The notes: a model not told the origin generated them from the letters alone. A stretch of DNA of 64,000 nt from Candidatus Uhrbacteria bacterium (GCA_023246355.1 JAHFIQ010000004.1:2697-66696); one strand, 5' to 3'. Shown: positions 1 through 42,750, counted from the first letter of the stretch. Numbers and translations are program-made.

Positions 1-373
1 AGCATTCTTCTCGTCTTGCGACAGTCCTTCCGTCGTCGAGCAGGATCGGACAGTACACCTCGCGCCAAAAGGCATTGTCCGCGTCGTCCGTTGGTGGGCC
101 TGGCATCGAGGTTATCGTCTCGTTGGACAGGGCGAACTTCGCCAGGCAGGGAGCTGTGCACTACCGCAATCGTCGATTGACAGCATACGGATCGCACAGC
201 AGAGTCGGGCAAAAGGAGCACCGTCTTGCGACAGCCCGAGTATCGCCCGACCAGACAGGACTACCTGAAAAAGCAGGAGATGTCAAACGCGGCGACCGCC
301 AATCGTTTGACAAATCGGGTGTTTTCTGGCACTGTGTCCGCCTCTGAGGCTGTCGCTTTAGAGCGGAGGATTC

Positions 374-4287: not shown

Positions 4288-4857
4288 TTGAAAATAAATT
4301 TTGGATTTTTCATGAAACAACGTCGCAACAACATTGCCTATATTGATGGGGCGAATCTTCACAAAGGCATTTCAGCGCTTGGATGGCGGCTAGATTACCG
4401 TCGTTTTCGTGTTTGGCTTTCTGATAAATACCATGTTCAGACTGCCTATTTGTTTATAGGTCTGATCCCGAGATACAAAGATTTGTATGCATATCTACAA
4501 AAGTGTGGTTTTACTTTGATTTTTAAGGAAGTGGTTTACGATGGTTCTGGCAAGGCAAAGGGGAATTGTGATTCGGATCTTGTGCTTCAAGCCATGCAAG
4601 ATGTCTATGAGTCGGCGTTTGATCAAGCTCTTCTTGTAACAAGCGACGGAGACTATGCGTCGCTCGTCAAGTTTCTATTAAAGCGTGAGAAAATGAATGC
4701 CGTTCTCTCGCCGAGTACATCTAAAAAATGTTCGATTTTGCTCAAACAAACCAACGTAAGGATAGCCTACATGCAGGATCAGCGGACACTGTTGCAAGCC
4801 AAAAAAGAAAAAGCCCCCGGTGGGGACGGAACCCCACAAGGGTCTCTTTCGTGGTGA
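4288..4857 (+). CDS. NYN-domain (LabA-like) predicted RNase
   Basis: IAYIDGANL ... DSDL ... VTSDGDYASL conserved acidic residues of the NYN/PIN-like fold; alternative start at 4312; AT-rich (~40% GC). Confidence 0.65.
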   Translation: MKINFGFFMKQRRNNIAYIDGANLHKGISALGWRLDYRRFRVWLSDKYHVQTAYLFIGLIPRYKDLYAYLQKCGFTLIFKEVVYDGSGKAKGNCDSDLVLQAMQDVYESAFDQALLVTSDGDYASLVKFLLKREKMNAVLSPSTSKKCSILLKQTNVRIAYMQDQRTLLQAKKEKAPGGDGTPQGSLSW

Positions 4858-4912
4858 ATATTGATACAATAGTCCAAAAGGCAGCACGTGTCAAATTGAA
4901 ATCTCACAGAGT

Positions 4913-5740
4913 ATGCAAATAAAGCATTTTTACAGGCTCAAACAAGGCGATATTGTTTCGCTTTTTCGTGAATTTCTAGAAGACGATCTGTTTCGTCGAT
5001 ATCCTGAGTTGGTAGGGAACGTGAGTGTTATCATAACTGGGTCGATTCCATCTGGTCATTATGATCAATATAGCGATATCGATACTGAGTTTTTTTATAC
5101 GCAGGAAGGCGATCGCAAGAAAATGAACGCGTTTGTAAAGGAGTATAAGGCTTCTCTCCGTCAAAGGAAACTACCAATTCAGTTTCATCCTGCCAAGACG
5201 TTTCGTGAAGTGAAAAAAGAGCACTTGACTGGATGGGGTCACGATGACTCGCTGCGGGAATACTCGAGTGCACTTAGTGTGATCGATCCGCAAGATCGTT
5301 TTCAAAAATTACAGCAGCAAATCAAATGGTATCCGAAGGATGTCCTTCAGGAGAAAATAAACTGGTTATTTGCAGAAGCTGTTTTTTCCTATTATGATCG
5401 TTATGTGGTAGCTCTCAAGCGTGGCAATGCCCATTATGCTGAAGCGGTGAAGCTGCATATCCTCAAGTTACTTGGGAATGCTCTTCTCATGACCGCTCAT
5501 ACGTTTCCAGTTTTCGAAAAGCATCTATATTTCGAAATTCGAGAGTTGGGCGATCGTAAACTTCTCTTCTTCTTTGACGAGATGATCGCGGGGCGATCAT
5601 CCACGACACAGAACAATGTCGTTAGAAAATTTTTGAACGTCGTTGAACGTAGATTGATAATAGACGGCTGGATACAAAAGAAGCCGAAGGGCTATTGGAT
5701 TCTTTTGCGGCCAAAGTATAAAGTTGAGTTGGTTTCGTAG
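4913..5740 (+). CDS. Pol-beta-superfamily nucleotidyltransferase, KNTase/ANT(4')-like
   Basis: ITGSIPSGHYDQYSDIDTEF = GS-x9-SDID NTase motif; ~150 aa helical C-domain typical of KNTase_C; AT-rich. Confidence 0.6.
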   Translation: MQIKHFYRLKQGDIVSLFREFLEDDLFRRYPELVGNVSVIITGSIPSGHYDQYSDIDTEFFYTQEGDRKKMNAFVKEYKASLRQRKLPIQFHPAKTFREVKKEHLTGWGHDDSLREYSSALSVIDPQDRFQKLQQQIKWYPKDVLQEKINWLFAEAVFSYYDRYVVALKRGNAHYAEAVKLHILKLLGNALLMTAHTFPVFEKHLYFEIRELGDRKLLFFFDEMIAGRSSTTQNNVVRKFLNVVERRLIIDGWIQKKPKGYWILLRPKYKVELVS

Positions 5741-11705: not shown

Positions 11706-13949
11706 CTATTTGATGTGACTCGCGGCGATAGAATAAATTTTCGATCCTGCTAAAAGATAAATGGTATAGCCCTCTTCGTCAACCACGAAGTCCGTCAGGC
11801 TTGCAAAGGCGCCTGAGCGATATTGCACAACAAATTCGCCGCTCTCCTTTTCAAAGACGATCAGTCGATTCGTCGCAGGTTCCAGAATGTACAGGTAGTT
11901 GCTTTCTGGGCTTGTCCACATTTTCGTGGCGTTTGTGATCGCTGGATCCACGACACCCACATCCCAGCCTTCTTCGCTGCCACTGGCAAATCGAGTGATG
12001 TTCCCATTTTTCATGAGCACGTAGACATTCCCATCCACCGCGAGAGAGATCGCACTATCAAATGAAACCGTCCGCGAGGTGATCCAGTTAGATTCACCTG
12101 AGAACTTGGATCCGCTTCGATCAAATCTCAAAATTTGGCCTTCTTGTCCGCCGGTGCTTGGCCGAAGGACGTACAGACGACTGGCATAGGCTTCTAAATC
12201 CACCCACGTGTTTGAACCGGCTCCTGTGGCTTCAAGTGTGGCGTCCTCTGGAGAGACGAAGTACACGTTTCCGTCTTCACCCAAGAAGTACAAACGGCCC
12301 TCTTCTTCAGAGGCAGACAGGGCAGGAGACGCTTTGGCGTCGTCGCCGATGGTCACTTCAAAGCGCTTGGTCTCGCGGTTGAAGGTATAGATGCGGCCAT
12401 CGGAACCGAAGACGAAGAGTTGACCTTCGCGCTCAATCAAACTATTTCCGAACACACCATCACTCAGATTTGCCAGATCGCCTAGGAGGGGAGGATTGGG
12501 AATAGTGACCACATGTCGAATTTCATCCAGGGCGTTTTCCAGATCCGTGGTCAGGGCGGCCGCTTTGGAGGCACGTTCGGGTGTGTCTGTCGGCAGTTCT
12601 GAAATGAGGGTCTCAGCATTCATGTAGAGGCTTCGCGCTTGATCTTCGTCTTTGTAAATGACCGCTCCACCGGCTCTCTCCATCAGATCATCTATCGTTG
12701 TGAGGCGCTCCTGATACGTTTTTTCTTCGGCTGATCGTGCCTGAGACTGTGAGAGAAATGAAATCCCAACAACCAAGACAACCACCGCGACGCCGATTCC
12801 CAGCAGTAAAAATTTTGTGGCGCGAGGAATACGCTGTGTTCGACGGACTGCCTGTTTTATACGCTCCAGTCCTGTTTCCTTGCTGAGACGGATACGTTTT
12901 TTTAGGCGCGTCCGTTCTTGTTCGTTCGAGAGGGTTTTGATCGCCTGGGTGGTGTGTTTCCATGAACGTTTTCCGAGAAAAAACAGCACACGCCAGAGCA
13001 TGCGTCCTACTCGTTTGATGGCCACCAGGCTTGAGTCCCGCGCGTTCAAGTCTTGTAAGATGCGTGACTTGCTCTGGGTTCGATGTTTGATCCAGGCTAC
13101 GAGTGATTGAACGAGAGATGAGAGTTTTGGACGTTGATCCTCAAGGAGGTCATGGGTTTCAGATTCCATGCGTTGAAACTCATCGACCGACACGTCCGCC
13201 TTTGCCATGGCAGATCGAGCGTCCAAGGTCGAAACAGAGAGTTCTGGTCCACCCACTTTGACGACCGTCAGCAAGAGCCCATCTTTATGAGAAAAATACT
13301 GACGGATTTTTTCGACGGAACTCACTGGAGGGAGGGTGCAGAGAATTTGGTTGAGCTCCTCAGGGGGAATGGCTTGTTGGAGATCGCGATCGCAGACGCA
13401 GAAGACATCACCAGGATGCAGGTCGCCATCCAAGACCACGGCGAATGGCTTTTCCCAGGTTGGGAGAGACTGCTCGGTTTGGATGCCACGGAAGAGATTA
13501 AAAATTTGATAGCGCTGAGAAGGTTTTTTGTGGAGGAACAGTGCGGTGAGTTCTCCGGTTCCGGAGAGAAACATCTGACGAGAGGACGCAACACCCACCA
13601 GGGCATGAACGTGTTCAATCGGGAGGACAAAACGCCCATCACGAACATGGGAGGAAAGGGTTTCATTGAGTGCACCAAGGAATTGTTCAAAGCGGTGCTG
13701 AGGATTGGCTTCTTTTCCGAAGGAGTCAGCCAGGCGATGGATTTGGTCGTTCAAGACCTGGAGAAAAAGGTCAGAGTCTGCGTTTTCTTTTTTCGTGTAC
13801 GCCAGCATGAACACAAAACCTCCTCGATCTTGAACCGGGAGAAGGATGGAAACGCCACGGATATGCTCATCGGGTGACTCGGGCTCCCACTGAGCGGCTT
13901 TGATTTCGGTTGGCATACGATTTGCTCTGATTTCCAGCATTGTGTACAT
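11706..13949 (-). CDS. single-pass membrane protein: cytoplasmic N-domain (possibly degenerate PP2C-like), TM helix, extracellular beta-propeller-like repeats
   Basis: 747 aa; TM FLLLGIGVAVVVLVVGISFL mid-protein; C-terminal repeated DG(R/N)(I/V)Y(T/F/V) blades; N-domain has weak PP2C-like spacing (GGFVF ... SGTGEL ... VCDRDL). Confidence 0.55.
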   Translation of the reverse strand: MYTMLEIRANRMPTEIKAAQWEPESPDEHIRGVSILLPVQDRGGFVFMLAYTKKENADSDLFLQVLNDQIHRLADSFGKEANPQHRFEQFLGALNETLSSHVRDGRFVLPIEHVHALVGVASSRQMFLSGTGELTALFLHKKPSQRYQIFNLFRGIQTEQSLPTWEKPFAVVLDGDLHPGDVFCVCDRDLQQAIPPEELNQILCTLPPVSSVEKIRQYFSHKDGLLLTVVKVGGPELSVSTLDARSAMAKADVSVDEFQRMESETHDLLEDQRPKLSSLVQSLVAWIKHRTQSKSRILQDLNARDSSLVAIKRVGRMLWRVLFFLGKRSWKHTTQAIKTLSNEQERTRLKKRIRLSKETGLERIKQAVRRTQRIPRATKFLLLGIGVAVVVLVVGISFLSQSQARSAEEKTYQERLTTIDDLMERAGGAVIYKDEDQARSLYMNAETLISELPTDTPERASKAAALTTDLENALDEIRHVVTIPNPPLLGDLANLSDGVFGNSLIEREGQLFVFGSDGRIYTFNRETKRFEVTIGDDAKASPALSASEEEGRLYFLGEDGNVYFVSPEDATLEATGAGSNTWVDLEAYASRLYVLRPSTGGQEGQILRFDRSGSKFSGESNWITSRTVSFDSAISLAVDGNVYVLMKNGNITRFASGSEEGWDVGVVDPAITNATKMWTSPESNYLYILEPATNRLIVFEKESGEFVVQYRSGAFASLTDFVVDEEGYTIYLLAGSKIYSIAASHIK

Positions 13950-25745: not shown

Positions 25746-25815
25746 TCCTAGCAGGACACGACCGGGGTCATGTTCTCTTAGGACTCGGCGATCGATTTCG
25801 TGTCGATCGCCGTCC
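25746..25815. repeat. ~70 bp upstream element R1 (island repeat family)
   Basis: cctagcaggacacga...atgttctcttagg...GGCGATCGA-tttcgtg-TCGATCGCC; about 87% identical to R3. Confidence 0.6.
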
Positions 25816-25956
25816 GTTGGTTTCTCACCGTGGAGGTTCTGCTCCCTCTGGGCTCACCGTCCGGTGGCCGAAGTTCTCCATTGCTGGATCGCTTCGACCA
25901 CCGGCATCGCAGGTGACGCGCCTGGTTTGAGTCCAGGAACTTGCGGCCGCGGGGAC

Positions 25957-27216
25957 CTACTTCTTCTTGCCCGCCGACTGCATGTCGTTGCGGATCTGGC
26001 GATCCTTCTCGGCGCGCGCTGCCATCTTTGCCAGCTTCCACGCCGGGGCGCCATTGCCGCTCCCGCCGGTCGCACCGCCGTTGCCGACGACGTCTCCGAA
26101 TCGCGGACGCAGGTTCCGGCTGGCCGCCTGGTACTTCAGCTCCTCGTCCATCATCGTCCGCATGGTCTCCTTGAGGGAGTACCCGCGGCCGAAGCGACGG
26201 ATGCAACGCTCGCCGAACGCGTGCCGCCACAGGTCTTTCGACCCGATGCGGCTTCCGTTCTGACGCTCGCGCATCGCACCGATTGGCGGCACCTGGGCCA
26301 CCGACTCGAGCACGAGGTTGCCGCATCCGCAGACGCACCGGAACGCGAGTCCCGACGCGGTGCTGATTCGACCGAAGGGATCGCTCCCCTCGGGCTTCAC
26401 GCTGGGGATCACCAGGATCAGCGGCGCGGACGCAGGGGAGGCCGACTTGCGGGCGGGGAGGACGAGGCCGGGCTTCACGGTCGCCTTGGGCTTGCGGCTC
26501 TCGACGATCTCGCTCACGCGGGCCTGGAGGGCACCCGCGCTGCGGAACAGGAGATCGACACCGAAGCCCGAGAGCTCCGACGGCGTTTCTCCATTCCACC
26601 CGATCACCTTCACGACCTCGCGGTCGTCGGTGAGACGGGCGAGCTCGTCGGCGGCCTTGCACGCGGCGGTGACCGCGGAGAGGTAGTCGGCCTCCATGGC
26701 GCGGGGGTGATCGCTCCACCTCTCCATGATCAGGTCGGTGCGGCTGAAGCCGAACTGCCGGACCAGGACGTGGTCGTCGATCTCATTCACCGCGTCCGCG
26801 AGGCGCGAGAGCCTGTCCGTGTAGACCGCCTCGCCGACGGTGTCGTCGTCGAACTCGTACTCGCTTTCCTCGCTGTCGGCCTCGATCTCCTCGTCGGACG
26901 CCTCTTCCCAGCTCTCGTACGAGCCGGCGAAGTTGTCCCACTCGGTGGCCGTCAGGTAGACCTCGCGGGACTGGACGGACGCGCTCGCGCGCATGCCGCC
27001 GTTCTGCCGACGGTTCAGCTCGCGCTGCCACGCCACGTCCTGCAGAGCCTGGTCCTCGTCGACCATGTCGAGGTTCTCGAGCGCGATGTCCGAGTAGTCG
27101 GGCGAGTTCGCGTCGCCTTCGCTCGTGACGTGGGAAGTGATCCCACGGCGATTGAACTTGATGCCGAGTTCGCGCACGCCTTCGGAGGCGAGGATGGGGC
27201 TGGGGGATCGGGACAT
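25957..27216 (-). CDS. hypothetical acidic protein (419 aa), no recognisable domain
   Basis: ATG 7 nt after AGGAGA; balanced composition unlike the Arg/Pro-rich shadow ORFs on other frames; acidic region (SDEEIEADSEESEYEFDDD); CVCGCG Cys cluster; basic C-terminus GKKK. Confidence 0.5.
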   Translation of the reverse strand: MSRSPSPILASEGVRELGIKFNRRGITSHVTSEGDANSPDYSDIALENLDMVDEDQALQDVAWQRELNRRQNGGMRASASVQSREVYLTATEWDNFAGSYESWEEASDEEIEADSEESEYEFDDDTVGEAVYTDRLSRLADAVNEIDDHVLVRQFGFSRTDLIMERWSDHPRAMEADYLSAVTAACKAADELARLTDDREVVKVIGWNGETPSELSGFGVDLLFRSAGALQARVSEIVESRKPKATVKPGLVLPARKSASPASAPLILVIPSVKPEGSDPFGRISTASGLAFRCVCGCGNLVLESVAQVPPIGAMRERQNGSRIGSKDLWRHAFGERCIRRFGRGYSLKETMRTMMDEELKYQAASRNLRPRFGDVVGNGGATGGSGNGAPAWKLAKMAARAEKDRQIRNDMQSAGKKK

Positions 27217-27254
27217 GAGAATCTCCTGGTTCAGTGGGGGGGGGAAGTAACCTT

Positions 27255-27330
27255 GGGCAAAGCCCTAGCAGTTCACGATTTAAGATCATGGACTCTTAGG
27301 GCTGGGCGAGTCGACTCACGTACGAATCGA
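27255..27330. repeat. ~70 bp upstream element R2 (diverged copy)
   Basis: ccctagcag..cacgat..atcatg..ctcttaggg then GGGCGAgTCGA...TCGAtCGCCC hairpin. Confidence 0.5.
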
Positions 27331-27334
27331 TCGC

Positions 27335-27356
27335 CCACCACGTCGCTCGCGAGCGA
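27335..27356. terminator. perfect 22 bp palindrome CACGTCGCTCGCGAGCGACGTG
   Basis: 3' of the small gene at 27395-27602; paralog of the 25571-25598 palindrome with symmetric T/C and A/G changes. Confidence 0.45.
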
Positions 27357-27394
27357 CGTGGCCGTCGTTCCCTTCGCCGTTGGCGTCTAGCCGT

Positions 27395-27602
27395 TCATCG
27401 AGCGGTCGCGGTCTGCAGGCGGCGGGCCTGCTCCATGCGGCGGACGAAGCGGGGAAGGATCACGGGGACGGCGGGGCGCGGCGGCGGGGTGGTGCCGGTG
27501 CAGAAGATCATGCCGGTCGTGAGAAAACGATCGGCGTCCTCGTCGGTGAAGAAGCGGTCGGTGGCGCGGGCCACCATGAGGATCGTGGGGGAAGGGGGCA
27601 TG
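27395..27602 (-). CDS. small hypothetical protein (69 aa)
   Basis: ATG 7 nt after GGGGAG; the longer ORF to 27715 lacks an SD. Confidence 0.35.
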
Positions 27603-27804
27603 GGAAGACTCCCCTGGTCGGTTGGTTCGGGTCCGACGCAGGAATTCGGAGAAGAATGGTCCAGTGACCTACCCGAAGGTTGGTGTAGACCTGGAACAAC
27701 GGGCATATGGATCAAGTAAGCGTAAGCCTAGTTGGGCCATTTGTTGTTCCTCCTCACGACCGCTTTTGGCGGCCAGAGGTTTCTCTCTCCTCCGAGTTCC
27801 TGTG

Positions 27805-27875
27805 TCAGATTTCCCTAGCAGGACACGATCATCGATCATGTTCTCTTAGGGTTCGGCGATCAATTTCGTGTTGAT
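27805..27875. repeat. ~70 bp upstream element R3
   Basis: cctagcaggacacgatcatcgatcatgttctcttaggg...GGCGATCAA-tttcgtg-TTGATCGCC (compensatory change relative to R1). Confidence 0.6.
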
Positions 27876-28012
27876 CGCCGCCCGTGTGCACCTAGCGTTT
27901 TTTCGGAAGGAGCAGGTGCGCTCCTTCCAACCACCCTTTCGGTTTCCGTTGTTCGCATCCTGTCTGGGACGCGGTAACGGTGGGCTGTGGTGCCCGTGTT
28001 GCTCGCCTCGCG

Positions 28013-28657
28013 CTAGCCGTTGGTTCCGGTTCCTTCGCCCTCGTCCGCCTCGTCCTCATCGGACTCGGCGGGTTCGGGGGCGGCGGTTCCGGCGGCGATC
28101 GCGGCGGCCTCGGCGCGGCGGGCTTCCTCGAGGTCGGCCTTGAACTGCGCGTAGCCTTCCTCGCCGGCGATGAGCTCGAGGATCTGCAGCGAGGTGCGGA
28201 TGTGGAGGCCGTGCTTGCCGATGATCGCGCGCGCGACGGTCTTCTCGGTCTCCTGCGTCGGTGCGTTGAACACCGGCGCGAGGGTCTCGATCAGCACGTC
28301 ACGCTCGCCACGACCGAGCTTCACCGGGCGACCCTCGGGGGTCTTCTTGTCGAGCGCCACGCCTTCCTTGGCCGCCTTCATCTCCGGGATCCAGCTCTGG
28401 AAGTACCACTCGCGGCTGCCGGCTTCGAGCTCGACCTTGGCCATGGCCCACCCGATCTGCACGATCGCGAAGGCGGACTGGCGGGACGAGATCGCGAAGT
28501 CGAACAGCTTCTGTCCGTGGTCCTTGAGCGGCTCGTAGAGACCGACGATGAGTTGGACCGCGAGGTCCGCTTCGTCGCGGGACACCACGGGCGTGGTCTG
28601 GCGCGGAGCCTGGCGGGGGGCGACGGCACTGTTGCGGGTCGGGAGCGTGAGAGACAT
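28013..28657 (-). CDS. hypothetical protein (214 aa) with acidic Ala-rich tail
   Basis: ATG 7 nt after AGGAG; no recognisable motifs. Confidence 0.5.
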   Translation of the reverse strand: MSLTLPTRNSAVAPRQAPRQTTPVVSRDEADLAVQLIVGLYEPLKDHGQKLFDFAISSRQSAFAIVQIGWAMAKVELEAGSREWYFQSWIPEMKAAKEGVALDKKTPEGRPVKLGRGERDVLIETLAPVFNAPTQETEKTVARAIIGKHGLHIRTSLQILELIAGEEGYAQFKADLEEARRAEAAAIAAGTAAPEPAESDEDEADEGEGTGTNG

Positions 28658-29134
28658 TGGGACTCCTGTTCTTGCGGTTGCGGCCGTGTGGCCAGGGAAC
28701 TGAATCGCTCGACGGTCAGAAATGATCCCGTCAGCCTACTGGAGGCCAGCCGTCGCCCTTGCGGGCTATGGCTGGTAAATAGTGGTGCATTGACCGATCC
28801 GAGGATCTGGTGTGCACCGTGGAGATCGGGTGTGTGGGGTGAGTGAGCCAAGGCCCAGTCAATCCACTTGATCTCCTCCGCTCATCGCGGCCGAAGCGTT
28901 GATGAGACGGTTTTACTCTCTCCTCCATGAGGCTGATGGCATCAGAACAAAAACCGGTTGTTGAATACATCGTCCAGAGAGAGATGCGTACAACAACCGG
29001 CCTTTGTGAAGGTTACGATTGATGGCCATTTACTTGGCCTGAGTACTCTCTCCCCAGAAAGTGTTTCGTTGTAAGCTTTGTGTGATCTTGTATGGACGCA
29101 GTCTATCATATTTTGTCAACTTTGTCAAGACTTG

Positions 29135-35305: not shown

Positions 35306-36150
35306 ACGGGTTTCTTCTTCTGCTCATTGTTGGTTCTCTTGGCGTGATAGCCGCTGTCCTCTTTCGAAAGCTTCCACAGCTTCGTGTGATTGATGTTGCG
35401 TCGATTCCCAAGGAGCGCGAGCGGCAGGTAAAAGAGCAAATCATTCTTTCCAAACTTCAGCGCACCGGCTCTGCCAAGCTGCAGCATGTGGCTCGATGGA
35501 TGTCGGACGCTGTAAAAATGTTGTCACGCCACGGACGACGTGCGGTTCAGCGACTCTATCGACTGGAGCAGTACTATCAACGCTTGAGACGGACCGCCTC
35601 TGAGGGGACAAACAGTTATAGTGAGGATCGCATCAAGCAACGACTTGAAGAAGCGCAGAAATTGATCGATCAAGATGAATTTATTCCAGCGGAGAAGATT
35701 TTTATCGACGTCATCAGCCACAACCCAAAGAGTGTTGACGCATATGAAGCGCTTGGGAACATGTACATTGAGAGTGGTCAGGTGGAACAAGCTCGTGAGA
35801 CCCTGCAGTTTACGCTTCGACTTTCTCCTGATGATGCGTCTGTCCATGTGTCGCTTGCGGAACTTGAAATGAAACAAGAACATCCGAAACAAGCGCTGAC
35901 CTATTTGCGCAAGGCGGTTGAAAAGCGACCGAAGAATCCTCGGTACTTGGATTTTTATATTCATGCCGCGCTTTCGACCGGCTCTCTCAAAGATGCACGA
36001 AAAGGCATTTTGGCTCTCAAAGACGTGAACCCGGAGAATCAAAAGATCGAAGAGTTTGAACGGCTGTTTCAGGAAAAGAAAGATGCGTATATTCGCAAAA
36101 CCTCCCGTGAGGCTGAGAAACCCACAGACATGCCTTCACAAGAGGGATGA
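35302..36150 (+). CDS. membrane-anchored TPR-repeat protein
   Basis: N-terminal TM helix then 3-4 TPR-like helical repeats. Confidence 0.55.
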   Translation: MNGFLLLLIVGSLGVIAAVLFRKLPQLRVIDVASIPKERERQVKEQIILSKLQRTGSAKLQHVARWMSDAVKMLSRHGRRAVQRLYRLEQYYQRLRRTASEGTNSYSEDRIKQRLEEAQKLIDQDEFIPAEKIFIDVISHNPKSVDAYEALGNMYIESGQVEQARETLQFTLRLSPDDASVHVSLAELEMKQEHPKQALTYLRKAVEKRPKNPRYLDFYIHAALSTGSLKDARKGILALKDVNPENQKIEEFERLFQEKKDAYIRKTSREAEKPTDMPSQEG

Positions 36151-36174
36151 GCTTTGTTACCATCATCGCGCTTC

Positions 36175-36250
36175 GCCGTTGTAGCTCAGTTGGTAGAGCA
36201 CATCCATGGTAAGGATGAGGTCACCGGTTCAATCCCGGTCAACGGCTCCA
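36175..36250 (+). tRNA. tRNA-Thr (anticodon GGU), CCA encoded
   Basis: cloverleaf folded by hand: acceptor GCCGTTG/CAACGGC, anticodon loop ATGGTAA, T-loop TTCAATC. Confidence 0.85.
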
Positions 36251-36256
36251 GGTTTC

Positions 36257-36342
36257 GGGCAGGTACCGAAGTGGTCAAACGGGGGAGACTGTAAATCTCC
36301 TGGCTTACGCCTTCGAAGGTTCGAACCCTTCCCTGCCCACCA
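36257..36342 (+). tRNA. tRNA-Tyr (anticodon GUA), long variable arm, CCA encoded
   Basis: near-collinear with the canonical bacterial tRNA-Tyr; anticodon loop CTGTAAA. Confidence 0.85.
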
Positions 36343-36378
36343 AAAAACAATCAAGCATGCTTGATTGTTTTTTGTTAC
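36343..36378. terminator. bidirectional terminator
   Basis: AACAATCAAGC-atg-CTTGATTGTT followed by TTTTGTT. Confidence 0.7.
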
Positions 36379-37430
36379 AGCAAGAGACAGTCCACGGTCC
36401 AGGAACTCATGCCAGGTCCGTCAAAGGCCTCATCGAGTGCAAGACCGATGGGATGATAGATCGGATTTGTTTGGGAGAGATCAATGAAAAAAAGTCGAGA
36501 GAAACTCACGGTTCCCTTTGTGTCCGTGTTGCACGAGGTGCTCACAAGCAGGTGTTCATCATCACCACAGAAGGTCGGATAGTTGAAGCTGGCGCCCTCA
36601 CAGGAGGAAAAGACGGGGTCGTACTTTGTGAGCGCTTCTGGTTTGAGATCTGCAAGAAACAGCGAGCTCTCGCCCAGTGATCCGTTTATCCACGAGCGAG
36701 CAAACAAGCCCCCACCTTTGGAGTTGTCACACACCGTGAGGGTCCCTGATGGAGAAAAGGCACAATGACCGCTTTTATTTTCCCAGGTGGCTGTGTCTCC
36801 CGTCTGTGTATCCAAGATCACTCCATGTGCGCCGTCATCCAAAATTTCATGAAGAATAATCGTGTGCCCGTCTGGTGCGTAATCAGGATCGCCCTGTTCG
36901 TTTTCTTCGGTGAGTGCCGAAGATTCAGAGATCGAGAGGCCGTTCAGTGTCAGAGCAGCGGACATGAGTCTGTCTGTATCACTTGTGACATACAGAAGCG
37001 TTGTTCCCTCAGGGCTCACCTCTGGCCAGGTGGCGAGAGAGAGCAGTGTGTCTGTGACGCCTGTTGTGAGATCGACGTAGTTGATGAGCTTCTGTGTGAT
37101 CGTCTCAAACACACTCGCGTAGACCACCATGCCATTTGGATTCCAAACAGGATAGGACTCGCTGATCTCGGGTGTCTCTGTCACTTGCTTCACGTCGTCT
37201 ACAGAACCTGCGTCCAGATCAAGATTCGCGGTAAAGAGATCACAAGCGTCTGTGCTACTGTGATCAGCGCAACCTTCATCTGTGGCAAAGTCAGAAGCGA
37301 AAACGAGTCGGGCCTGTGTTGAGGAAGGTGGAGAGGTGGACAAGGTGGACGAGGGAGATGAGGTGGATATCACAACAAGGATGATCATGATCACACACAG
37401 GAACAGACATACTCCAAAAGTTTTCTTCAT
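36375..37430 (-). CDS. secreted protein with beta-propeller-like repeats and S/T-rich linker
   Basis: signal/TM anchor; the STSSPSSTLSTSPPSST linker is encoded by the CCACCT minisatellite; 351 aa. Confidence 0.5.
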   Translation of the reverse strand: MKKTFGVCLFLCVIMIILVVISTSSPSSTLSTSPPSSTQARLVFASDFATDEGCADHSSTDACDLFTANLDLDAGSVDDVKQVTETPEISESYPVWNPNGMVVYASVFETITQKLINYVDLTTGVTDTLLSLATWPEVSPEGTTLLYVTSDTDRLMSAALTLNGLSISESSALTEENEQGDPDYAPDGHTIILHEILDDGAHGVILDTQTGDTATWENKSGHCAFSPSGTLTVCDNSKGGGLFARSWINGSLGESSLFLADLKPEALTKYDPVFSSCEGASFNYPTFCGDDEHLLVSTSCNTDTKGTVSFSRLFFIDLSQTNPIYHPIGLALDEAFDGPGMSSWTVDCLLL

Positions 37431-37466
37431 AGATTTCTATTCTACCGCATCTCTTGACAAATCACT

Positions 37467-37495
37467 CCCACATGACATACTTTCCCTCTGCTCAC
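37467..37495 (+). promoter_or_regulatory. putative sigma70-like promoter (TTGACA-17-ATACTT)
   Basis: hexamers read directly, upstream of the J-domain gene. Confidence 0.3.
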
Positions 37496-37508
37496 CCACG
37501 GAGACAGC

Positions 37509-38048
37509 ATGACTCACTACGAGTTGCTCGCTGTCCCCATGGACGCGAGCACTGACGATATTCGACGCGGCTTTCGAGAGAAGGCTCAGGTTCTTCACCC
37601 GGATCGGTTTGCCAAGCTCGGCGAGTCGAAGGAGCAACAGACTGAACGGGCTCGCGTGTTTCAGCAACTGCGCGATGCCTACGAAACGCTCATAGATGAA
37701 CGTAAGCGTCGGGCCTATGACCGCCTGATTCAGGTTCCACAGGGTCTTGCTGATCTTGTGCGGCTTCCTGAAGGTCGGCGCGCCATGGCACGACTGCTTC
37801 CTCGAGCGACCAAGCAGGCTCGGGAAGGGGAAGATCGTCTCGTCCTCATCGAGGCTCCGCTATCTTTGCTCAGAACAGGAGGAGTGCTTGAGCTCACAGT
37901 GATTTCTTTACCCGGCTACGATCCACTGTTTGTGCCGCCGAACGCTCTTGACATGCCCTGGGCACATCTGAGCGAGCTGGGAAATCCGGGCGAAAACGAA
38001 GGAAATCCTGGAAACCTCTACCTCTTGCTGATTCCAAGCGCTTCTTGA
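37509..38048 (+). CDS. J-domain (DnaJ-like) protein with unknown C-terminal domain
   Basis: YELLAVPMDASTDDIRRGFREKAQVLHPDR carries the HPD tripeptide; elevated GC. Confidence 0.65.
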   Translation: MTHYELLAVPMDASTDDIRRGFREKAQVLHPDRFAKLGESKEQQTERARVFQQLRDAYETLIDERKRRAYDRLIQVPQGLADLVRLPEGRRAMARLLPRATKQAREGEDRLVLIEAPLSLLRTGGVLELTVISLPGYDPLFVPPNALDMPWAHLSELGNPGENEGNPGNLYLLLIPSAS

Positions 38049-38139
38049 CCCTTTCGGGGGTCATTTTCTTTTGCCCGCTTTTCTTGACATTCTCAGTCGT
38101 TTTGATAGTCTGAGTCCTCCTCTTCCAGGAGTAGGAAAC

Positions 38140-38595
38140 ATGGCCCTGTTTTCACGCAGTGGCGCTCGAAGCGCCCTGTCTACATTCGTTCGTCAAAATG
38201 ATGAAGGCGGCAGCACGGACAGCCGTGCGACTCAGTCCGCTCGATTGCTTCAAGCAGGCTTCGCCCCGATCCTGTGGGACGATGAGCTTGGCGGATTCGT
38301 GAGCGACCCGGCGATCTTCGCCGCGGCCGTGAGTCACATCGCTACTGCCTCCATGGCTCCCGCAAAGCTCGAGGAACTCAAAGCAGTGAAGACCATCCAG
38401 GCGATGCGAGCACTCGCAAAGGACGTGGACGCCAGCATCGTGACGCCCGAGGATGGGGCACTCTCTGCCTTCCTGCGCGGCGTTGCGGCTCTGGGAACCG
38501 ACGGCCGTGTGTGGCTCTTGCTCGTCGCGGCTCATCTTGGCAGCTTGAAAGCAACTGCGCAGCTGCGCCCTCTCATCTACCCCAACCTCAAGTAG
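38140..38595 (+). CDS. hypothetical protein (151 aa)
   Basis: ATG 11 nt after AGGAG; Ala-rich helical; elevated GC. Confidence 0.4.
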   Translation: MALFSRSGARSALSTFVRQNDEGGSTDSRATQSARLLQAGFAPILWDDELGGFVSDPAIFAAAVSHIATASMAPAKLEELKAVKTIQAMRALAKDVDASIVTPEDGALSAFLRGVAALGTDGRVWLLLVAAHLGSLKATAQLRPLIYPNLK

Positions 38596-38601
38596 GATGC
38601 C

Positions 38602-39372
38602 ATGCCCATCGATCCCAGTGACCTGAACGCACTTGCCGATGACAGGTTTCGACAAGGAGAAGGAGGCACAGCGCTCGCAAGGCGCGTGCAAGAAGACCCG
38701 GTCTCTGCTCTGCAGTTGATCGGCTCAACCTCGCTCGCCAGGGGGCAGAGCGCCAAAGCCTTGGACAACATCATCGGCGCGATCGGCGACGATGCGAAGG
38801 CCAAGGACTTGGTCGCGGAGCACGTGACCGCGGAAGTCCAAGCGGAAATCCTGGTGGCATGGGGGGACCGAGTGAGCTCGCTCGCTCAGATCGCCGACCC
38901 GGAAACGCTCATCCAGGCCATCTTCCGGATGAGCCATGAGGAAGGACATCTGGATCTGGCCGTGGCCTGCGCAACGGTTCGGGGGCTCGCGATGCAGATT
39001 CACGATCGTTCTGACTGGGACGAAGTGCTGGATCTGGAACTTTCCAGTGACTTCACCCTGCGGGATCTGCTCGTGATCGCGGTAGCTGCCGAGGTCGATC
39101 CTGTGGACTTGGATCCCAAGGACGCCGGTGATGATGACGAGGATGACGAGACGTCCAGTCAAGGAGCTCGACCGGCGGACGCCTGGGTGAATGTGGGACT
39201 CAATCCCGATGAGGCCGAAGAGCGACTGGAGGAGTTGGAACAGATGTCGCCAGACATCTGGCGCGAAGTGACGGATACGGCTCTGTTCTCTGCTCGTCTG
39301 GCTCTTTCCAAGAAGCGTGAAGAGCTCGGTCTGCCTGCGGATGCGACCCGCGGTTCGGCTCACGACGTGTAG
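38602..39372 (+). CDS. hypothetical acidic protein (256 aa)
   Basis: poly-acidic stretch DAGDDDEDDE; no known motif. Confidence 0.45.
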   Translation: MPIDPSDLNALADDRFRQGEGGTALARRVQEDPVSALQLIGSTSLARGQSAKALDNIIGAIGDDAKAKDLVAEHVTAEVQAEILVAWGDRVSSLAQIADPETLIQAIFRMSHEEGHLDLAVACATVRGLAMQIHDRSDWDEVLDLELSSDFTLRDLLVIAVAAEVDPVDLDPKDAGDDDEDDETSSQGARPADAWVNVGLNPDEAEERLEELEQMSPDIWREVTDTALFSARLALSKKREELGLPADATRGSAHDV

Positions 39373-39490
39373 CTCGCGATCGGCTTACCCACGCAGGGAG
39401 CCGATTTTCTTTCCCGTGACGGTCACGGGAGTTTTCTTCGCCGGTCATGATTCTCATGAACGTCGATTGAACCTTTCACTTGGGGATGCC

Positions 39491-41494
39491 ATGGAGACCG
39501 CACTTGTTCCTGTGCGGCGTTCCATCGCCCCACAGGTTTCTATCTCGCCCTTTGGAGCCATGATTGCCGATCTGGAAGCGCGTGCTTCACAGACCGGCCA
39601 CACTCACTTTGGCCGTGTCACGTGGTCGGCCCTTCCGGTGCGCCACCTGCTTGCTGATGCTGCCGCGCTCATCATCGATGCGGTGGGGAAGCGCAGTGAG
39701 ATGCGTTTGGGAACTCAGACAGACGCAGAACATATCGCCGAAGCCACAGATGCTCGGCTGAACGTGGGAGTGCTTCTGCTGTATGGAACACCTCAATCCG
39801 CGGCTGACGCCTTTGAGCTTCAAGTCTTTGGAGCCTTTAACCGTGCGATCAAAGTCGGATACCGTCCTGGGATGATTCTGACCGACGACGCGTGGCGGGC
39901 CCTGATGCGTGGTGCCTCAGGAATGGCTGTTCAGGAATTGAAGTCGCAGACGCCCTCGGGGGAGCAAGGAGATCTTGCGACCTTCTGGTGTCGTCCGGCG
40001 TATCTGTTTCTGGCGGCCTGTGTGAAGCGCGGAAGGGAACACACAGAAACCATGCGTGCTCGTGCAACGCAGCTCAACCATGAGAACGCTGTTCGCGTTT
40101 CTGAAGTTCATGTCCTGAGTGGTCTGTCTGGCCGTACCATCCGTTGGTTGGAAGGAGATAGCTCGCTCAAAGACCAGCTTGGGAAGGCCCTGCAGCTTTC
40201 CGCCAAGCTCGATGCCTACGAGGCCCTGCTTGCCGTGGGCATTGCCACGCTCAAAGCAGAACAGCCTCTGCGTGGTCACGAGATGTGCGTAGAAGAAAAT
40301 GGGATCTTTCTTCCCTGGCTCAACACCGCGGTTCTCAAGGTCGCCTTGGGGGATGTGAACATCACTCCAGGAGCACTCTCTCCCGAGCAAGCGGTTGAGG
40401 CACAGCAACGGTTGCGTGAACTCGACACCTCGGTGGTCACCGAGCAAGTGGTGTCCGTGGTTCGTTCAAGAGCCCGTCGCGTCGCACCTGCCTTGCTGGT
40501 CCGAGGCCTTGTCCAAGTTCGCGAACATCTCACCGGGCAGGTGGCGAGGCTTGTGAAGAGTCAGCATGCTCCCATGCTGGGTGATCATTTCATTGACCCC
40601 TACTTGGGAAACATCGCAAAGGTCGTGCTCACGCATGAATCCGCCATGGAGTACCTCGATCCCTTCAGCAATGATGATGTCCGCGAGCCATTGCCCGATG
40701 AGCTCATGGCCGCGATCGAAGCCGCGCTTGAGTGGAAACGGTTTGACCCAGAAGAGTTGCAGATGCTGATTGAGGGAGGCTCGCTTCCCCATGAGGTCAT
40801 CGTCAGACACCTGGGCGATCTGACCGCATCCGCCAAAAAGAAAGCTGTTGACACGCTGGTGGAATATCATCCAGAGCTCGTCAACGTGTTGCTCTCTACA
40901 GGGCATCTCGTGTGGGGGCGGGGTTTGGCTGAACGCTGTCTGCCGCATCTGTCTCCGGAATACCTGGCTCGTGCGCTCTGCGAGTCGCTTCTTCAGGAAA
41001 CCGCGTTTGAAGACACTCTGTCCAAATACGTCGGGATCATGCTCTTGCTGCCAGAGGCAAGGCTTCGAGAGATTTGGGCAGACCCCAGGTATCACGAAGC
41101 GCTCGTTGACTTCATGGACGCATTCCTCTTTGACAGTGGTGCCACGGACATTTCAGATGTACAGGAGAAGGCTCTTGCTGAGCGTGTTCTTACGTCCTTT
41201 CGGACCTACGGGCTTGAGGCCTACGTCAAGTTCCGCTCGGCGATCTACGGTGAGGAACCGCTCGTGCCCAAGTCAGAGCGGATGATGCCTCGATGGGAAC
41301 AGACCGCGTCGAGCAAACGCACGAGTTGGACCCTGGTCGTGCGCATGCGGCGGGTCTTTTCCAAGCACCTCGCTGCGATGATCGGTGAACTGTCAGAGGA
41401 AGAGTGTTTTCGACGCTTGGTCCATGACCGCCCAGATCGTGATCAACGTGTGCACGTGTTCCTTGCCAATCGGTCACGCTTCTACGGACCGTAA
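39491..41494 (+). CDS. large hypothetical protein (667 aa), mostly helical, no nucleotide-binding motif found
   Basis: ATG 39491 after GGGGA; the longer ORF-track start overlaps the previous gene; no Walker or catalytic motifs recognised. Confidence 0.5.
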   Translation: METALVPVRRSIAPQVSISPFGAMIADLEARASQTGHTHFGRVTWSALPVRHLLADAAALIIDAVGKRSEMRLGTQTDAEHIAEATDARLNVGVLLLYGTPQSAADAFELQVFGAFNRAIKVGYRPGMILTDDAWRALMRGASGMAVQELKSQTPSGEQGDLATFWCRPAYLFLAACVKRGREHTETMRARATQLNHENAVRVSEVHVLSGLSGRTIRWLEGDSSLKDQLGKALQLSAKLDAYEALLAVGIATLKAEQPLRGHEMCVEENGIFLPWLNTAVLKVALGDVNITPGALSPEQAVEAQQRLRELDTSVVTEQVVSVVRSRARRVAPALLVRGLVQVREHLTGQVARLVKSQHAPMLGDHFIDPYLGNIAKVVLTHESAMEYLDPFSNDDVREPLPDELMAAIEAALEWKRFDPEELQMLIEGGSLPHEVIVRHLGDLTASAKKKAVDTLVEYHPELVNVLLSTGHLVWGRGLAERCLPHLSPEYLARALCESLLQETAFEDTLSKYVGIMLLLPEARLREIWADPRYHEALVDFMDAFLFDSGATDISDVQEKALAERVLTSFRTYGLEAYVKFRSAIYGEEPLVPKSERMMPRWEQTASSKRTSWTLVVRMRRVFSKHLAAMIGELSEEECFRRLVHDRPDRDQRVHVFLANRSRFYGP

Positions 41495-41579
41495 CAGTCA
41501 CAACGACCTGGCCAGCAAATGGCCGGGTTTTATTATTGGACAGCTGTTTGCCAATCGCTTATACTCATCGAGAATTGAG

Positions 41580-41654
41580 GCCGGTGTAGCTCAGGGGTAG
41601 AGCAACACTTTTGTAAAGTGAAGGTCGTGGGTTCGAATCCCTCCACCGGCTCCA
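41580..41654 (+). tRNA. tRNA-Thr (anticodon UGU), CCA encoded
   Basis: acceptor GCCGGTG/CACCGGC, anticodon loop TTTGTAA, T-loop TTCGAAT; one U-U mismatch in the T stem. Confidence 0.75.
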
Positions 41655-41693
41655 TTGACTTATTTCAACGCCACCAGTAGGATCCTCCCATCT

Positions 41694-41849
41694 ATGTCAC
41701 AAGATAATCTCGTCAACCTCGAATGTACGCAGTGCAAACGCGTTGGATACCAGAGCAAGAAGAACAAAAAAAAGCTCAAGGATCGTCTTGAGATGAAGAA
41801 GTTTTGTAAGTGGTGCAAAGGACACGTCCTCCATAAGGAGACAAAATAA
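41694..41849 (+). CDS. rpmG: 50S ribosomal protein L33
   Basis: 51 aa; CTQCKRVGYQSKKNKKK...CKWCKGHVLHKETK zinc-ribbon L33 pattern. Confidence 0.85.
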   Translation: MSQDNLVNLECTQCKRVGYQSKKNKKKLKDRLEMKKFCKWCKGHVLHKETK

Positions 41850-41970
41850 GACTGTTGAAATTCCTTCATCTGCTGCGTTGCGGGACCCGGCCATCGCTTC
41901 GCTGTAGGATTACCTACAGCTCCAGCGACTGGCCACCCGCGCCTTGCAGCTGAAGTTTTTCAACAGTCTT
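41850..41970 (-). ncRNA. ~120 nt structured element, copy A (reverse orientation), candidate sRNA or complex terminator
   Basis: 12 bp closing stem GACTGTTGAAA/TTTCAACAGTC; conserved cores identical to the copy at 61956-62076; apical hairpin CTGTAGG-atta-CCTACAG. Confidence 0.45.
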
Positions 41971-42034
41971 AAATGAAAATCCCCACCTGTTGGTGAGGAG
42001 TGGAGATCGACCGCGTGTCGATCTTTTCGTTTGG

Positions 42035-42601
42035 CTACTCGCTCTGGAGCGCCTTTTCGATCTCGGTCCAGTTGTGCGGATCCTGACCTTCGCCGCCCGA
42101 GACCCAGCTTGCGCGCACGCGACCATCCTGGATCAGGATCAGTGCGTTCTTGGTGCGGCTGCTGAGGTTCGGAGGGTTGATCCTCAGAAGTCGCGACAGC
42201 GTGGCGCTGGGGGAGAACACGGTGCAGCGGGTGGGCTCACGTGTCAGGCCATGCAGGCCCGTGAGGATTCCGCAGCTGTAGAGGACACTGCCGATGAAGT
42301 CGGTCGCGCCACCACCGACCATGACGACCGGTACGCCGAGCCGCTCGCCGTGGCGAAGTACTTGTCCGATTGCGCCGTAATCAGCGAGATCTTCCACACA
42401 CACGAGAAGGTAGGTGCCGTCGCCGGGAAGGAGTTCGCCCACATGGAGCGTTCCGCCGTTGACTGGGGTCACACCACCCACGGGCTTTCGATGGATCTGG
42501 AAGGTGGCGTCTTCTGGCCACTCGATGAGGCTGGTGCTGTGGCCCTTGGACGGGCCGGAGGGAGCAAGGGCGGGAGGAGGAAGAGCGGGCGAGAGAGACA
42601 T
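42035..42601 (-). CDS. hypothetical protein, possibly divergent redoxin/peroxiredoxin-like fold
   Basis: ATG after GGAG; loose Bcp-like spacing (LLVCVED ... ILIQDGRV) but no canonical PGCT; GC ~62%. Confidence 0.3.
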   Translation of the reverse strand: MSLSPALPPPALAPSGPSKGHSTSLIEWPEDATFQIHRKPVGGVTPVNGGTLHVGELLPGDGTYLLVCVEDLADYGAIGQVLRHGERLGVPVVMVGGGATDFIGSVLYSCGILTGLHGLTREPTRCTVFSPSATLSRLLRINPPNLSSRTKNALILIQDGRVRASWVSGGEGQDPHNWTEIEKALQSE

Positions 42602-42750
42602 GGGTGCGTTCAACTCCGGGGGATGGTGGATGTGCATCCGCAAACAGGAGTGTTTCGGAAACACGAGCGCGATTCTACCCTGGCACTCTGAGCAAGTCAA
42701 TGCATGCCTGTGGATGGCGGGGATTCGCTCTGTGGTAGAATTTCACCACT

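Follow-up and report, generated by a model that had tools for sequence, protein, structure and literature searches.

A conserved four-gene cassette centred on a minimal J-domain protein in Candidatus Uhrbacteria and related Patescibacteria

The stretch of DNA analysed here (the window) comprises 64,000 nucleotides (nt) from Candidatus Uhrbacteria bacterium (GCA_023246355.1 JAHFIQ010000004.1:2697-66696; coordinates are counted from its first letter) and contains, between two groups of transfer RNA (tRNA) genes, a cassette of four plus-strand genes, B, C, D and E (37509-41494). Gene B (37509-38048) encodes a J-domain protein of 179 amino acids (aa), gene C (38140-38595) a 151 aa protein of a family without known relatives, gene D (38602-39372) a strongly acidic protein of 256 aa with a net charge of -33 and an acidic run, and gene E (39491-41494, its start fixed by alignment of homologues) a protein of 667 aa. 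To the left lie tRNA-Thr(GGU) (36175-36250, plus strand), tRNA-Tyr(GUA) (36257-36342, plus strand) and a minus-strand gene, A; to the right lie tRNA-Thr(UGU) (41580-41654, plus strand) and rpmG (41694-41849, plus strand), encoding the 51 aa ribosomal protein L33 (PF00471, 2.1e-18). For all three tRNA genes ARAGORN and Rfam agree, and the protein genes that Pfam identifies in the flanks of the cassette are those for TIM, a TPR protein, rpmG and NDH-2. An initial annotation of this region had placed the first two tRNA genes at 36175-36342, tRNA-Thr(UGU) and rpmG at 41580-41849 and five protein genes between them, a layout with which ARAGORN, Rfam and Pfam concur; it had interpreted the interval as a mobile island inserted into a tRNA array. 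The comparisons described below lead to a different conclusion, namely that B-C-D-E is very probably an ancestral chromosomal module and not an island.

A first search with the E protein returned nine relatives, the named ones belonging to Candidatus Uhrbacteria or Patescibacteria, and an exhaustive profile search enlarged the family to 126 clusters (50% identity) at E<=1e-3, in which nearly all complete-looking proteins are 590-735 aa long and the named members are assigned to Uhrbacteria, Magasanikbacteria or "Patescibacteria group". The loci carrying the cassette were sorted into 13 distinct lineages: the window (with L009 and L010), L001 (with L011), L007 (with L008 and L014), L004 (with L005, L006 and L013), L015, L016, L017, L018 (with L019), L020 (with L021), L022, L023 together with L025 (close relatives at one site, counted once), L024 and L026. 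The complete order J-protein, C, D, E is found in 12 of them, and the L016 contig, which ends inside E, has the same order, so the constant association of the four plus-strand genes, which the initial annotation had proposed as a check, is borne out. Across the lineages a J-protein of 173-194 aa is followed by a protein of 143-164 aa, an acidic protein of 239-307 aa and the E homologue, and this order is kept in about ten different genomic neighbourhoods. Local hidden Markov models built from close relatives recognised the distant B proteins over their full length at 1e-24 to 1e-40 and the distant D proteins at 1e-16 to 1e-30; distant C proteins gave weaker values (1.5e-7 to 3e-3), and the C protein of L018 was not significant. 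C and D are replaced in L020 and L022 by one protein of 383 or 404 aa whose C-terminal part corresponds to D. The fusion in L022, whose N-terminal part also matches C, is better supported than that in L020, of which the D part is significant and the C part is not. The scans of GTDB and of metagenomes were pattern-based, recovered three loci each and are no measure of prevalence across orders. One further contig (L012, CAYYFM010000029.1, 4.3 kb) has the D and E genes and, though labelled "uncultured Gammaproteobacteria bacterium", is probably a mis-binned contig of Patescibacteria.

The position of the cassette is itself conserved among some of these genomes. In the window, L001 and L007, B-C-D-E follows the same left junction formed by TIM, the TPR protein and tRNA-Thr(GGU), and the TIM proteins of these genomes are about 75% identical; the tRNA-Thr(GGU) gene of the window agrees at 76 of 76 positions with its counterpart in L001 and at 74 of 76 with that in L007, both of which likewise precede the cassette. 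Synteny in related genomes, which the initial annotation had proposed as a check of its own island reading, shows these four genes at the same place and speaks against that reading. L023 and L025 share a second, different site, and the remaining sites adjoin unrelated housekeeping genes, including those for RecJ, HisRS, RecA, XseAB with a UvrD-type helicase, and glycosyltransferases. Adjacent tRNA genes were found in none of the other lineages with enough flank, in a scan that excluded L017-L026; in L004 a tRNA-His gene lies about 2.3 kb from the cassette.

The tRNA and rpmG genes around the cassette are arranged differently in each of the three syntenic lineages. The window has tRNA-Thr and tRNA-Tyr before the cassette and tRNA-Thr with rpmG after it; L001 has tRNA-Thr before it and tRNA-Tyr, tRNA-Thr and rpmG after it; and L007 has tRNA-Thr before it and an inverted rpmG after it, the same inversion of the rpmG orthologue being present in L008. 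The tRNA-Tyr genes of the window (36257-36342) and of L001 (12122-12207) are orthologous (79 of 86 positions identical) and stand on opposite sides of the cassette, and the inverted rpmG of L007 occupies 12095-12241. These local rearrangements of the tRNA and rpmG genes carry no mobile-element signature. The right-hand neighbour of the cassette, tRNA-Thr(UGU), is identical to the L001 copy at 74 of 75 positions, and a tuf gene was not found after rpmG in the window, L001 or L007. The conserved contiguous tRNA array upstream of tuf and rpmG that the island interpretation presupposed is therefore not what these genomes contain: the tRNA/rpmG neighbourhood rearranges, and the cassette stays intact.

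The protein encoded by the first gene of the cassette has a J-domain over residues 2-71 (PF00226, 8.9e-16), with the HPD motif at residues 30-32, a motif present in all homologues read. Its C-terminal half, searched as a profile, matches DnaJ (6jzb, 8.3e-7) and a CbpA-like protein (3lz8, 1.1e-3); this half carries the G.pG.NgG..GDLyv signature of the C-terminal domains (CTDs) of DnaJ and CbpA, and the homologues in L023 and L025 give a weak match to PF01556. Residues 72-110 are not rich in glycine and phenylalanine, so that a Gly/Phe-rich (G/F) region is absent; there is room for one CTD-like unit of about 70 residues, which aligns to either CTD of DnaJ 6jzb, and neither cysteine clusters or a zinc finger nor an evident dimerisation domain was found in B. 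With one CTD and no G/F region or zinc finger, B is, as judged from its sequence, a class C J-protein under the definitions of classes A, B and C taken from PMC12799103, one that keeps a single DnaJ-type client-binding beta-sandwich. No Hsp70 gene was found in the window, where only MreB carries the actin-fold motif, and the previous description of the locus as a J-protein-centred module without an adjacent Hsp70 gene is a fair one.

Compared with known J-proteins, B resembles CbpA and DnaJ in having an N-terminal J-domain with HPD and a homologous C-terminal beta-sandwich, and differs from them in its length of 179 aa, in having one CTD instead of two, and in lacking the G/F region, the zinc finger and an evident dimerisation domain; unlike CbpA with its partner CbpM, it adjoins three proteins of no known family. 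The isc operon encodes HscB together with IscU and with a dedicated Hsp70, HscA, and HscB binds its clients through a helical domain. B may be compared to it as a small, dedicated J-protein encoded beside the proteins that it would pass to Hsp70, but its client-binding domain is of the DnaJ-CTD type, no Hsp70 is adjacent, and its putative clients come from new families; the NCBIfam HscB matches to B cover only the J-domain and lie far below the cut-off. In class B J-domain proteins such as Sis1 and DNAJB1, the CTD binds the EEVD tail of Hsp70. Docking of the CTD of B on a short acidic tail would parallel this, given the ..DDV or ..DDL ending of D, with the difference that the tail would belong to a neighbouring protein that is not an Hsp70; such an interaction is purely hypothetical.

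None of the other three proteins could be assigned to a known family. The start of C is placed at the ATG at 38140 and not at the TTG at 38071, on the basis of the homologues and of the promoter-like site at 38084-38111. C belongs to a small, well conserved family, has no match in Pfam, NCBIfam, PADLOC or PDB and only two weak PHROG matches (E above 0.1), and its AlphaFold 2 model alone (mean predicted local distance difference test score, pLDDT, of 51) is too poor for a fold search, which is consistent with C needing D. Where C and D are separate genes, the stop codon of the first and the start codon of the second overlap or are no more than 15 nt from each other, except in L023, where the gap is 34 nt; C is probably the partner of D. 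D has no significant family or PDB match in searches of Pfam, NCBIfam, PADLOC, PHROG and PDB profiles; matches to SDR/FabG proteins, at E of about 1e-5 and far below the cut-offs, were judged compositional. Its net charge ranges from -24 to -35 in most lineages, and 11 of the 13 lineages read have an acidic C-terminal tail ending in ..DV, ..DDA or ..DDL(DL/DM/DF).

E has no Walker A motif and no significant match in Pfam, NCBIfam, PADLOC, PHROG or a PDB profile search, and a Pfam search with 67 diverse members of the family gave only four singleton chance matches. Its predicted structure is all-helical and matches no known fold, including those in BFVD. In alignments of 67-104 members of the family the near-invariant positions, most of them aromatic or hydrophobic, are P49, A104, F108, F173, W276, W415, W602 and E636 (both alignments), plus R582. 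Paralogy among C, D and E was considered and found for no pair by hhalign. On the basis of these searches C, D and E appear to be three undescribed families, with E the founder of an all-alpha family of about 590-735 aa. The earlier characterisation of the three as proteins without a recognisable family, with D poly-acidic and E helical and devoid of an NTPase motif, was confirmed.

Signals for transcription were called by consensus matching and comparative reading, which is not proof of their activity, and they suggest that the cassette is divided into three units. A sigma-70-like promoter precedes B (37454-37481, plus strand; TTGACA-16-CATACT with TG, a consensus match only), and a terminator-like hairpin with a T-run, detected by motif scan, directly follows it (38046-38063, plus strand); by eye, a GC hairpin with a T-run is also seen after B in the other lineages that have a gap between B and C. 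Before C lies a promoter-like site (38084-38111, plus strand; TTGACA, 16 nt, TGaTAGTCT) that the scan did not flag and whose -10 hexamer matches at 3 of 6 positions, and TTGAC(A/G)-16..18-TAnnnT occurs at the same position in L001, L004, L007, L015, L016, L017 and L022. Two tandem terminator-like hairpins follow D (39379-39431, plus strand; 39379-39405 recognised by eye and 39411-39431 by scan), each succeeded by TTTTCTT, and the layout is the same in close relatives. A motif scan places an intrinsic-terminator-like hairpin after E (41505-41529, plus strand), and tRNA-Thr(UGU) and rpmG have a promoter-like site of their own (41537-41565, plus strand; TGGACA-17-TATACT). With promoter-like sites before B and C and terminator-like hairpins after B, D and E, the four genes, which had been taken to be co-transcribed, probably do not form one transcript.

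The spacer between D and E contains a further, conserved hairpin (39431-39473, plus strand) that continues into the motif GCGATTGAACC, some 25 nt upstream of where E begins. RNAalifold, applied to seven lineages, folds it with 16 pairs, nine of which show compensatory changes, and the conserved architecture of the spacer is seen in the window, L001, L004, L007, L012, L015 and L016. Rfam gave no match to the internal intergenic regions, including this leader, and the motif GCGATTGAACC is not enriched in the window. The segment 39379-39473 is a candidate for a new cis-regulatory leader. As a repeat of the window, the leader motif GATTGAACC (39465-39473, plus strand) was rejected: it is not enriched and was judged to recur by chance. 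Its one other exact copy in the window (36226-36234, minus strand) is antisense to the T-arm of tRNA-Thr(GGU); about 0.5 copies are expected, and the match is probably coincidence.

We interpret B-C-D-E as a vertically inherited, lineage-specific module of Uhrbacteria and Magasanikbacteria-type Patescibacteria, not inserted into a tRNA array; that it is an ancestral chromosomal module and no island is in our view very probable. As to function, we suggest, with a probability of about 0.5, that B serves as a dedicated co-chaperone and recruits DnaK to a complex of C·D with E that is specific to these lineages. The J-domain of B would trigger ATP hydrolysis in a housekeeping DnaK encoded elsewhere, and its CTD-like domain would dock on the module's own proteins, for which the conserved acidic C-terminal tail of D or the acidic linker of D is a plausible site by analogy. 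C and D, translationally coupled or fused, would form one unit, as suggested by the fusions in L020 and L022, the near-overlapping codons and the poor model of C alone. This unit would work with E as a cytoplasmic scaffold-like complex, E being viewed as a scaffold rather than an enzyme because it is all-alpha, lacks a Walker A motif and has near-invariant residues that are mostly aromatic or hydrophobic. DnaK would then govern assembly, disassembly or conformation of C·D-E. Expression would be split into the three units B, C-D and E, with the tandem terminators and the structured leader probably setting the dose of E. A bolder version, in which C·D with E is a new Hsp70-dependent cytoplasmic machine or scaffold peculiar to these Patescibacteria, E has a new all-alpha fold, B reads the tail of D and a new RNA leader sets the dose of E, is tentative, and we consider it less likely than the general scheme.

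Several observations weigh against this interpretation. There is no DnaK in the window, and the partner of B is presumed to be encoded elsewhere; the contacts among the products of B, C, D and E are likewise inferred by us. With predicted terminators standing between B and C-D and again between C-D and E, the three units may be regulated independently; E, for which no promoter of the sigma-70 type could be recognised, may be expressed through regulated readthrough. The tail of D is not conserved in two of the 13 lineages read (L022 and L024). In the three syntenic genomes the cassette proteins are 52-63% identical, as against 75-90% for the flanking housekeeping proteins, a divergence that fits fast evolution without proving vertical descent. 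The GC content at third codon positions (GC3) of C, D and E, 0.62-0.69, is also somewhat higher than that of the neighbouring genes (0.50-0.57).

This last feature and the location between tRNA genes bear on the initial proposal, namely that a mobile element or defence cargo entered between tRNA-Tyr and tRNA-Thr(UGU) and split an ancestral array. The cassette resembles tRNA-integrated islands in its position and in its GC content (0.584 for B-E, 0.516 for the rest of the window, a difference of 6.8 points), GC3 is moderately raised in C, D and E, and the different side taken by tRNA-Tyr in the window and L001 demonstrates that the locus does rearrange. One distant copy, in L018, has an IS30-like transposase gene (4365-5357, HTH_38 and rve domains) about 540 bp upstream, the only mobile-element gene seen beside any copy of the cassette. 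Yet Pfam, NCBIfam and PHROG searches detect no integrase or recombinase among the five proteins, and a repeat search over 36000-42000 found no att-like copy of a tRNA 3' end at the edge of the interval, only chance-level pairs of 14-28 nt and, as the sole tRNA-related repeat, the 5' acceptor stem shared by the two tRNA-Thr genes. Relatives of E are absent from IMG/VR, INPHARED phages and PLSDB plasmids, and none of the proteins A to E has a significant match in PADLOC or PHROG; the mobile or defence cargo that had been suggested is not supported. The left junction is the same in L001 and L007 even though TIM has diverged to about 75% identity, and the other scanned lineages with enough flank have no adjacent tRNA genes. 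The raised GC across 37.5-41.5 kb that the initial annotation reported is real, but another block of the window reaches the same level and the pattern does not look clearly like that of an island: the cassette exceeds its flanks in all six hosts tested (0.504/0.481, 0.575/0.504, 0.584/0.516, 0.619/0.522, 0.633/0.586 and 0.666/0.621), so that the excess travels with the genes and follows host GC. In the window it arises partly from first codon positions, reflecting amino-acid composition, and partly from third positions. Integration as an island is therefore highly improbable, and is already largely refuted.

A conflict system of the abortive infection or toxin-antitoxin type, kept by vertical descent, would fit the faster evolution than that of the housekeeping neighbours and the slightly deviant GC together with the strict order of several genes whose products belong to no known family; E or D would be an effector or sensor restrained by the others, and the J-protein would couple it to the chaperone state of the host. 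The closest approach to a known defence protein is the non-significant PADLOC match of the J-domain of B to PDC-M46A (E 0.041, the best among A to E). Against such a system, searches of C, D and E gave no motif of the nuclease, NTPase, protease, TIR, Sir2 or transmembrane kind, conservation in E falls on residues that appear structural, within sublineages the cassette keeps its position, and the genes around the cassette in the 13 lineages are ordinary housekeeping genes with no defence-island neighbourhood among them. We regard this explanation as improbable. Somewhat less so, but still unlikely, is that B is a general small co-chaperone of the DnaJ/CbpA kind that adjoins C-D-E through shared regulation or history. 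Its own predicted promoter and terminator, and the resemblance of its CTD to generic DnaJ client-binding domains, would suit such a role; against it, B has remained next to C-D-E, in unchanged order, in about ten unrelated neighbourhoods in which all else has changed, and the B subfamily can be recognised over its full length and stands beside E in each lineage whose contig extends far enough. The cassette also differs from tRNA-integrated islands in having no integrase, att repeats or mobile-element relatives and in being present at the same site in the related L001 and L007.

Gene A (36375-37430, minus strand) encodes a protein of 351 aa that the initial annotation had called a secreted beta-propeller and counted among the five genes of the insertion. 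The strand is as described, and the protein, anchored or secreted, has an N-terminal hydrophobic anchor; propeller similarity is limited to a weak resemblance to TolB (TIGR02800 at 1.6e-3 in NCBIfam, PDB TolB at about 1e-3). By tblastn the gene was matched solely in the window's own strain (L009 and L010), and its slot is taken by unrelated open reading frames (ORFs) in L001 and L004 and by only 104 nt, with a terminator and a promoter, in L007. It is a strain-specific filler outside the module. Between tRNA-Tyr and gene A lies a palindrome, I2 (36341-36374), a perfect inverted repeat of 17+17 nt with 100% complementarity and flanking A and T runs, which probably terminates transcription from both sides, that of the tRNA pair and that of the convergent gene A.

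Two other regions of the window deserve mention. The 4-kb windows that reach the GC content of B-E make up 5.4% of the total and all fall in a separate block at about 24-30 kb. Within it, 25800-28800 has 61-71% GC in a window of about 51% and contains two acidic minus-strand ORFs, 25957-27216 (419 aa) and 28013-28657 (214 aa), with GC3 of about 0.90 against about 0.55 in neighbouring genes and no match in Pfam or PHROG; its composition is far more island-like than that of the B-E cassette. The other, noted at 41990-42700, is the gap that separates rpmG from the NDH-2-like gene; it is 0.9 kb long with 59% GC and includes overlapping ORFs of 233 aa (plus strand) and 221 aa (minus strand) without Pfam matches, and gene calls in relatives put a minus-strand gene of 175-188 aa at this place.

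A specialised J-protein with dedicated partners is an already known kind of system, but neither the pairing of a J-domain with one CTD nor any of the three partner families seems to have been described; a search for papers on J-domain proteins in Uhrbacteria or Patescibacteria found none, the wider bacterial J-protein literature not having been screened. The present comparison removes a false island call and shows that in these reduced genomes, where the order of tRNA genes and rpmG is fluid, a "split array" says little about insertion. In place of the island stand four genes, kept tightly together in a bacterial group of which little is understood: one for an unusually small J-protein and three for families without known relatives or folds. 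Patescibacteria have many such conserved sets of hypothetical genes; this one is unusually clean and offers features open to testing: the fusion of C and D, the motif in the tail of D, the RNA leader of E and the lack of a fold match for the large protein. If the proposed function is correct, the cassette would be a compact, tractable example of a J-protein targeting Hsp70 to a dedicated client complex, and would offer a first handle on the lineage-specific cell biology of Patescibacteria.

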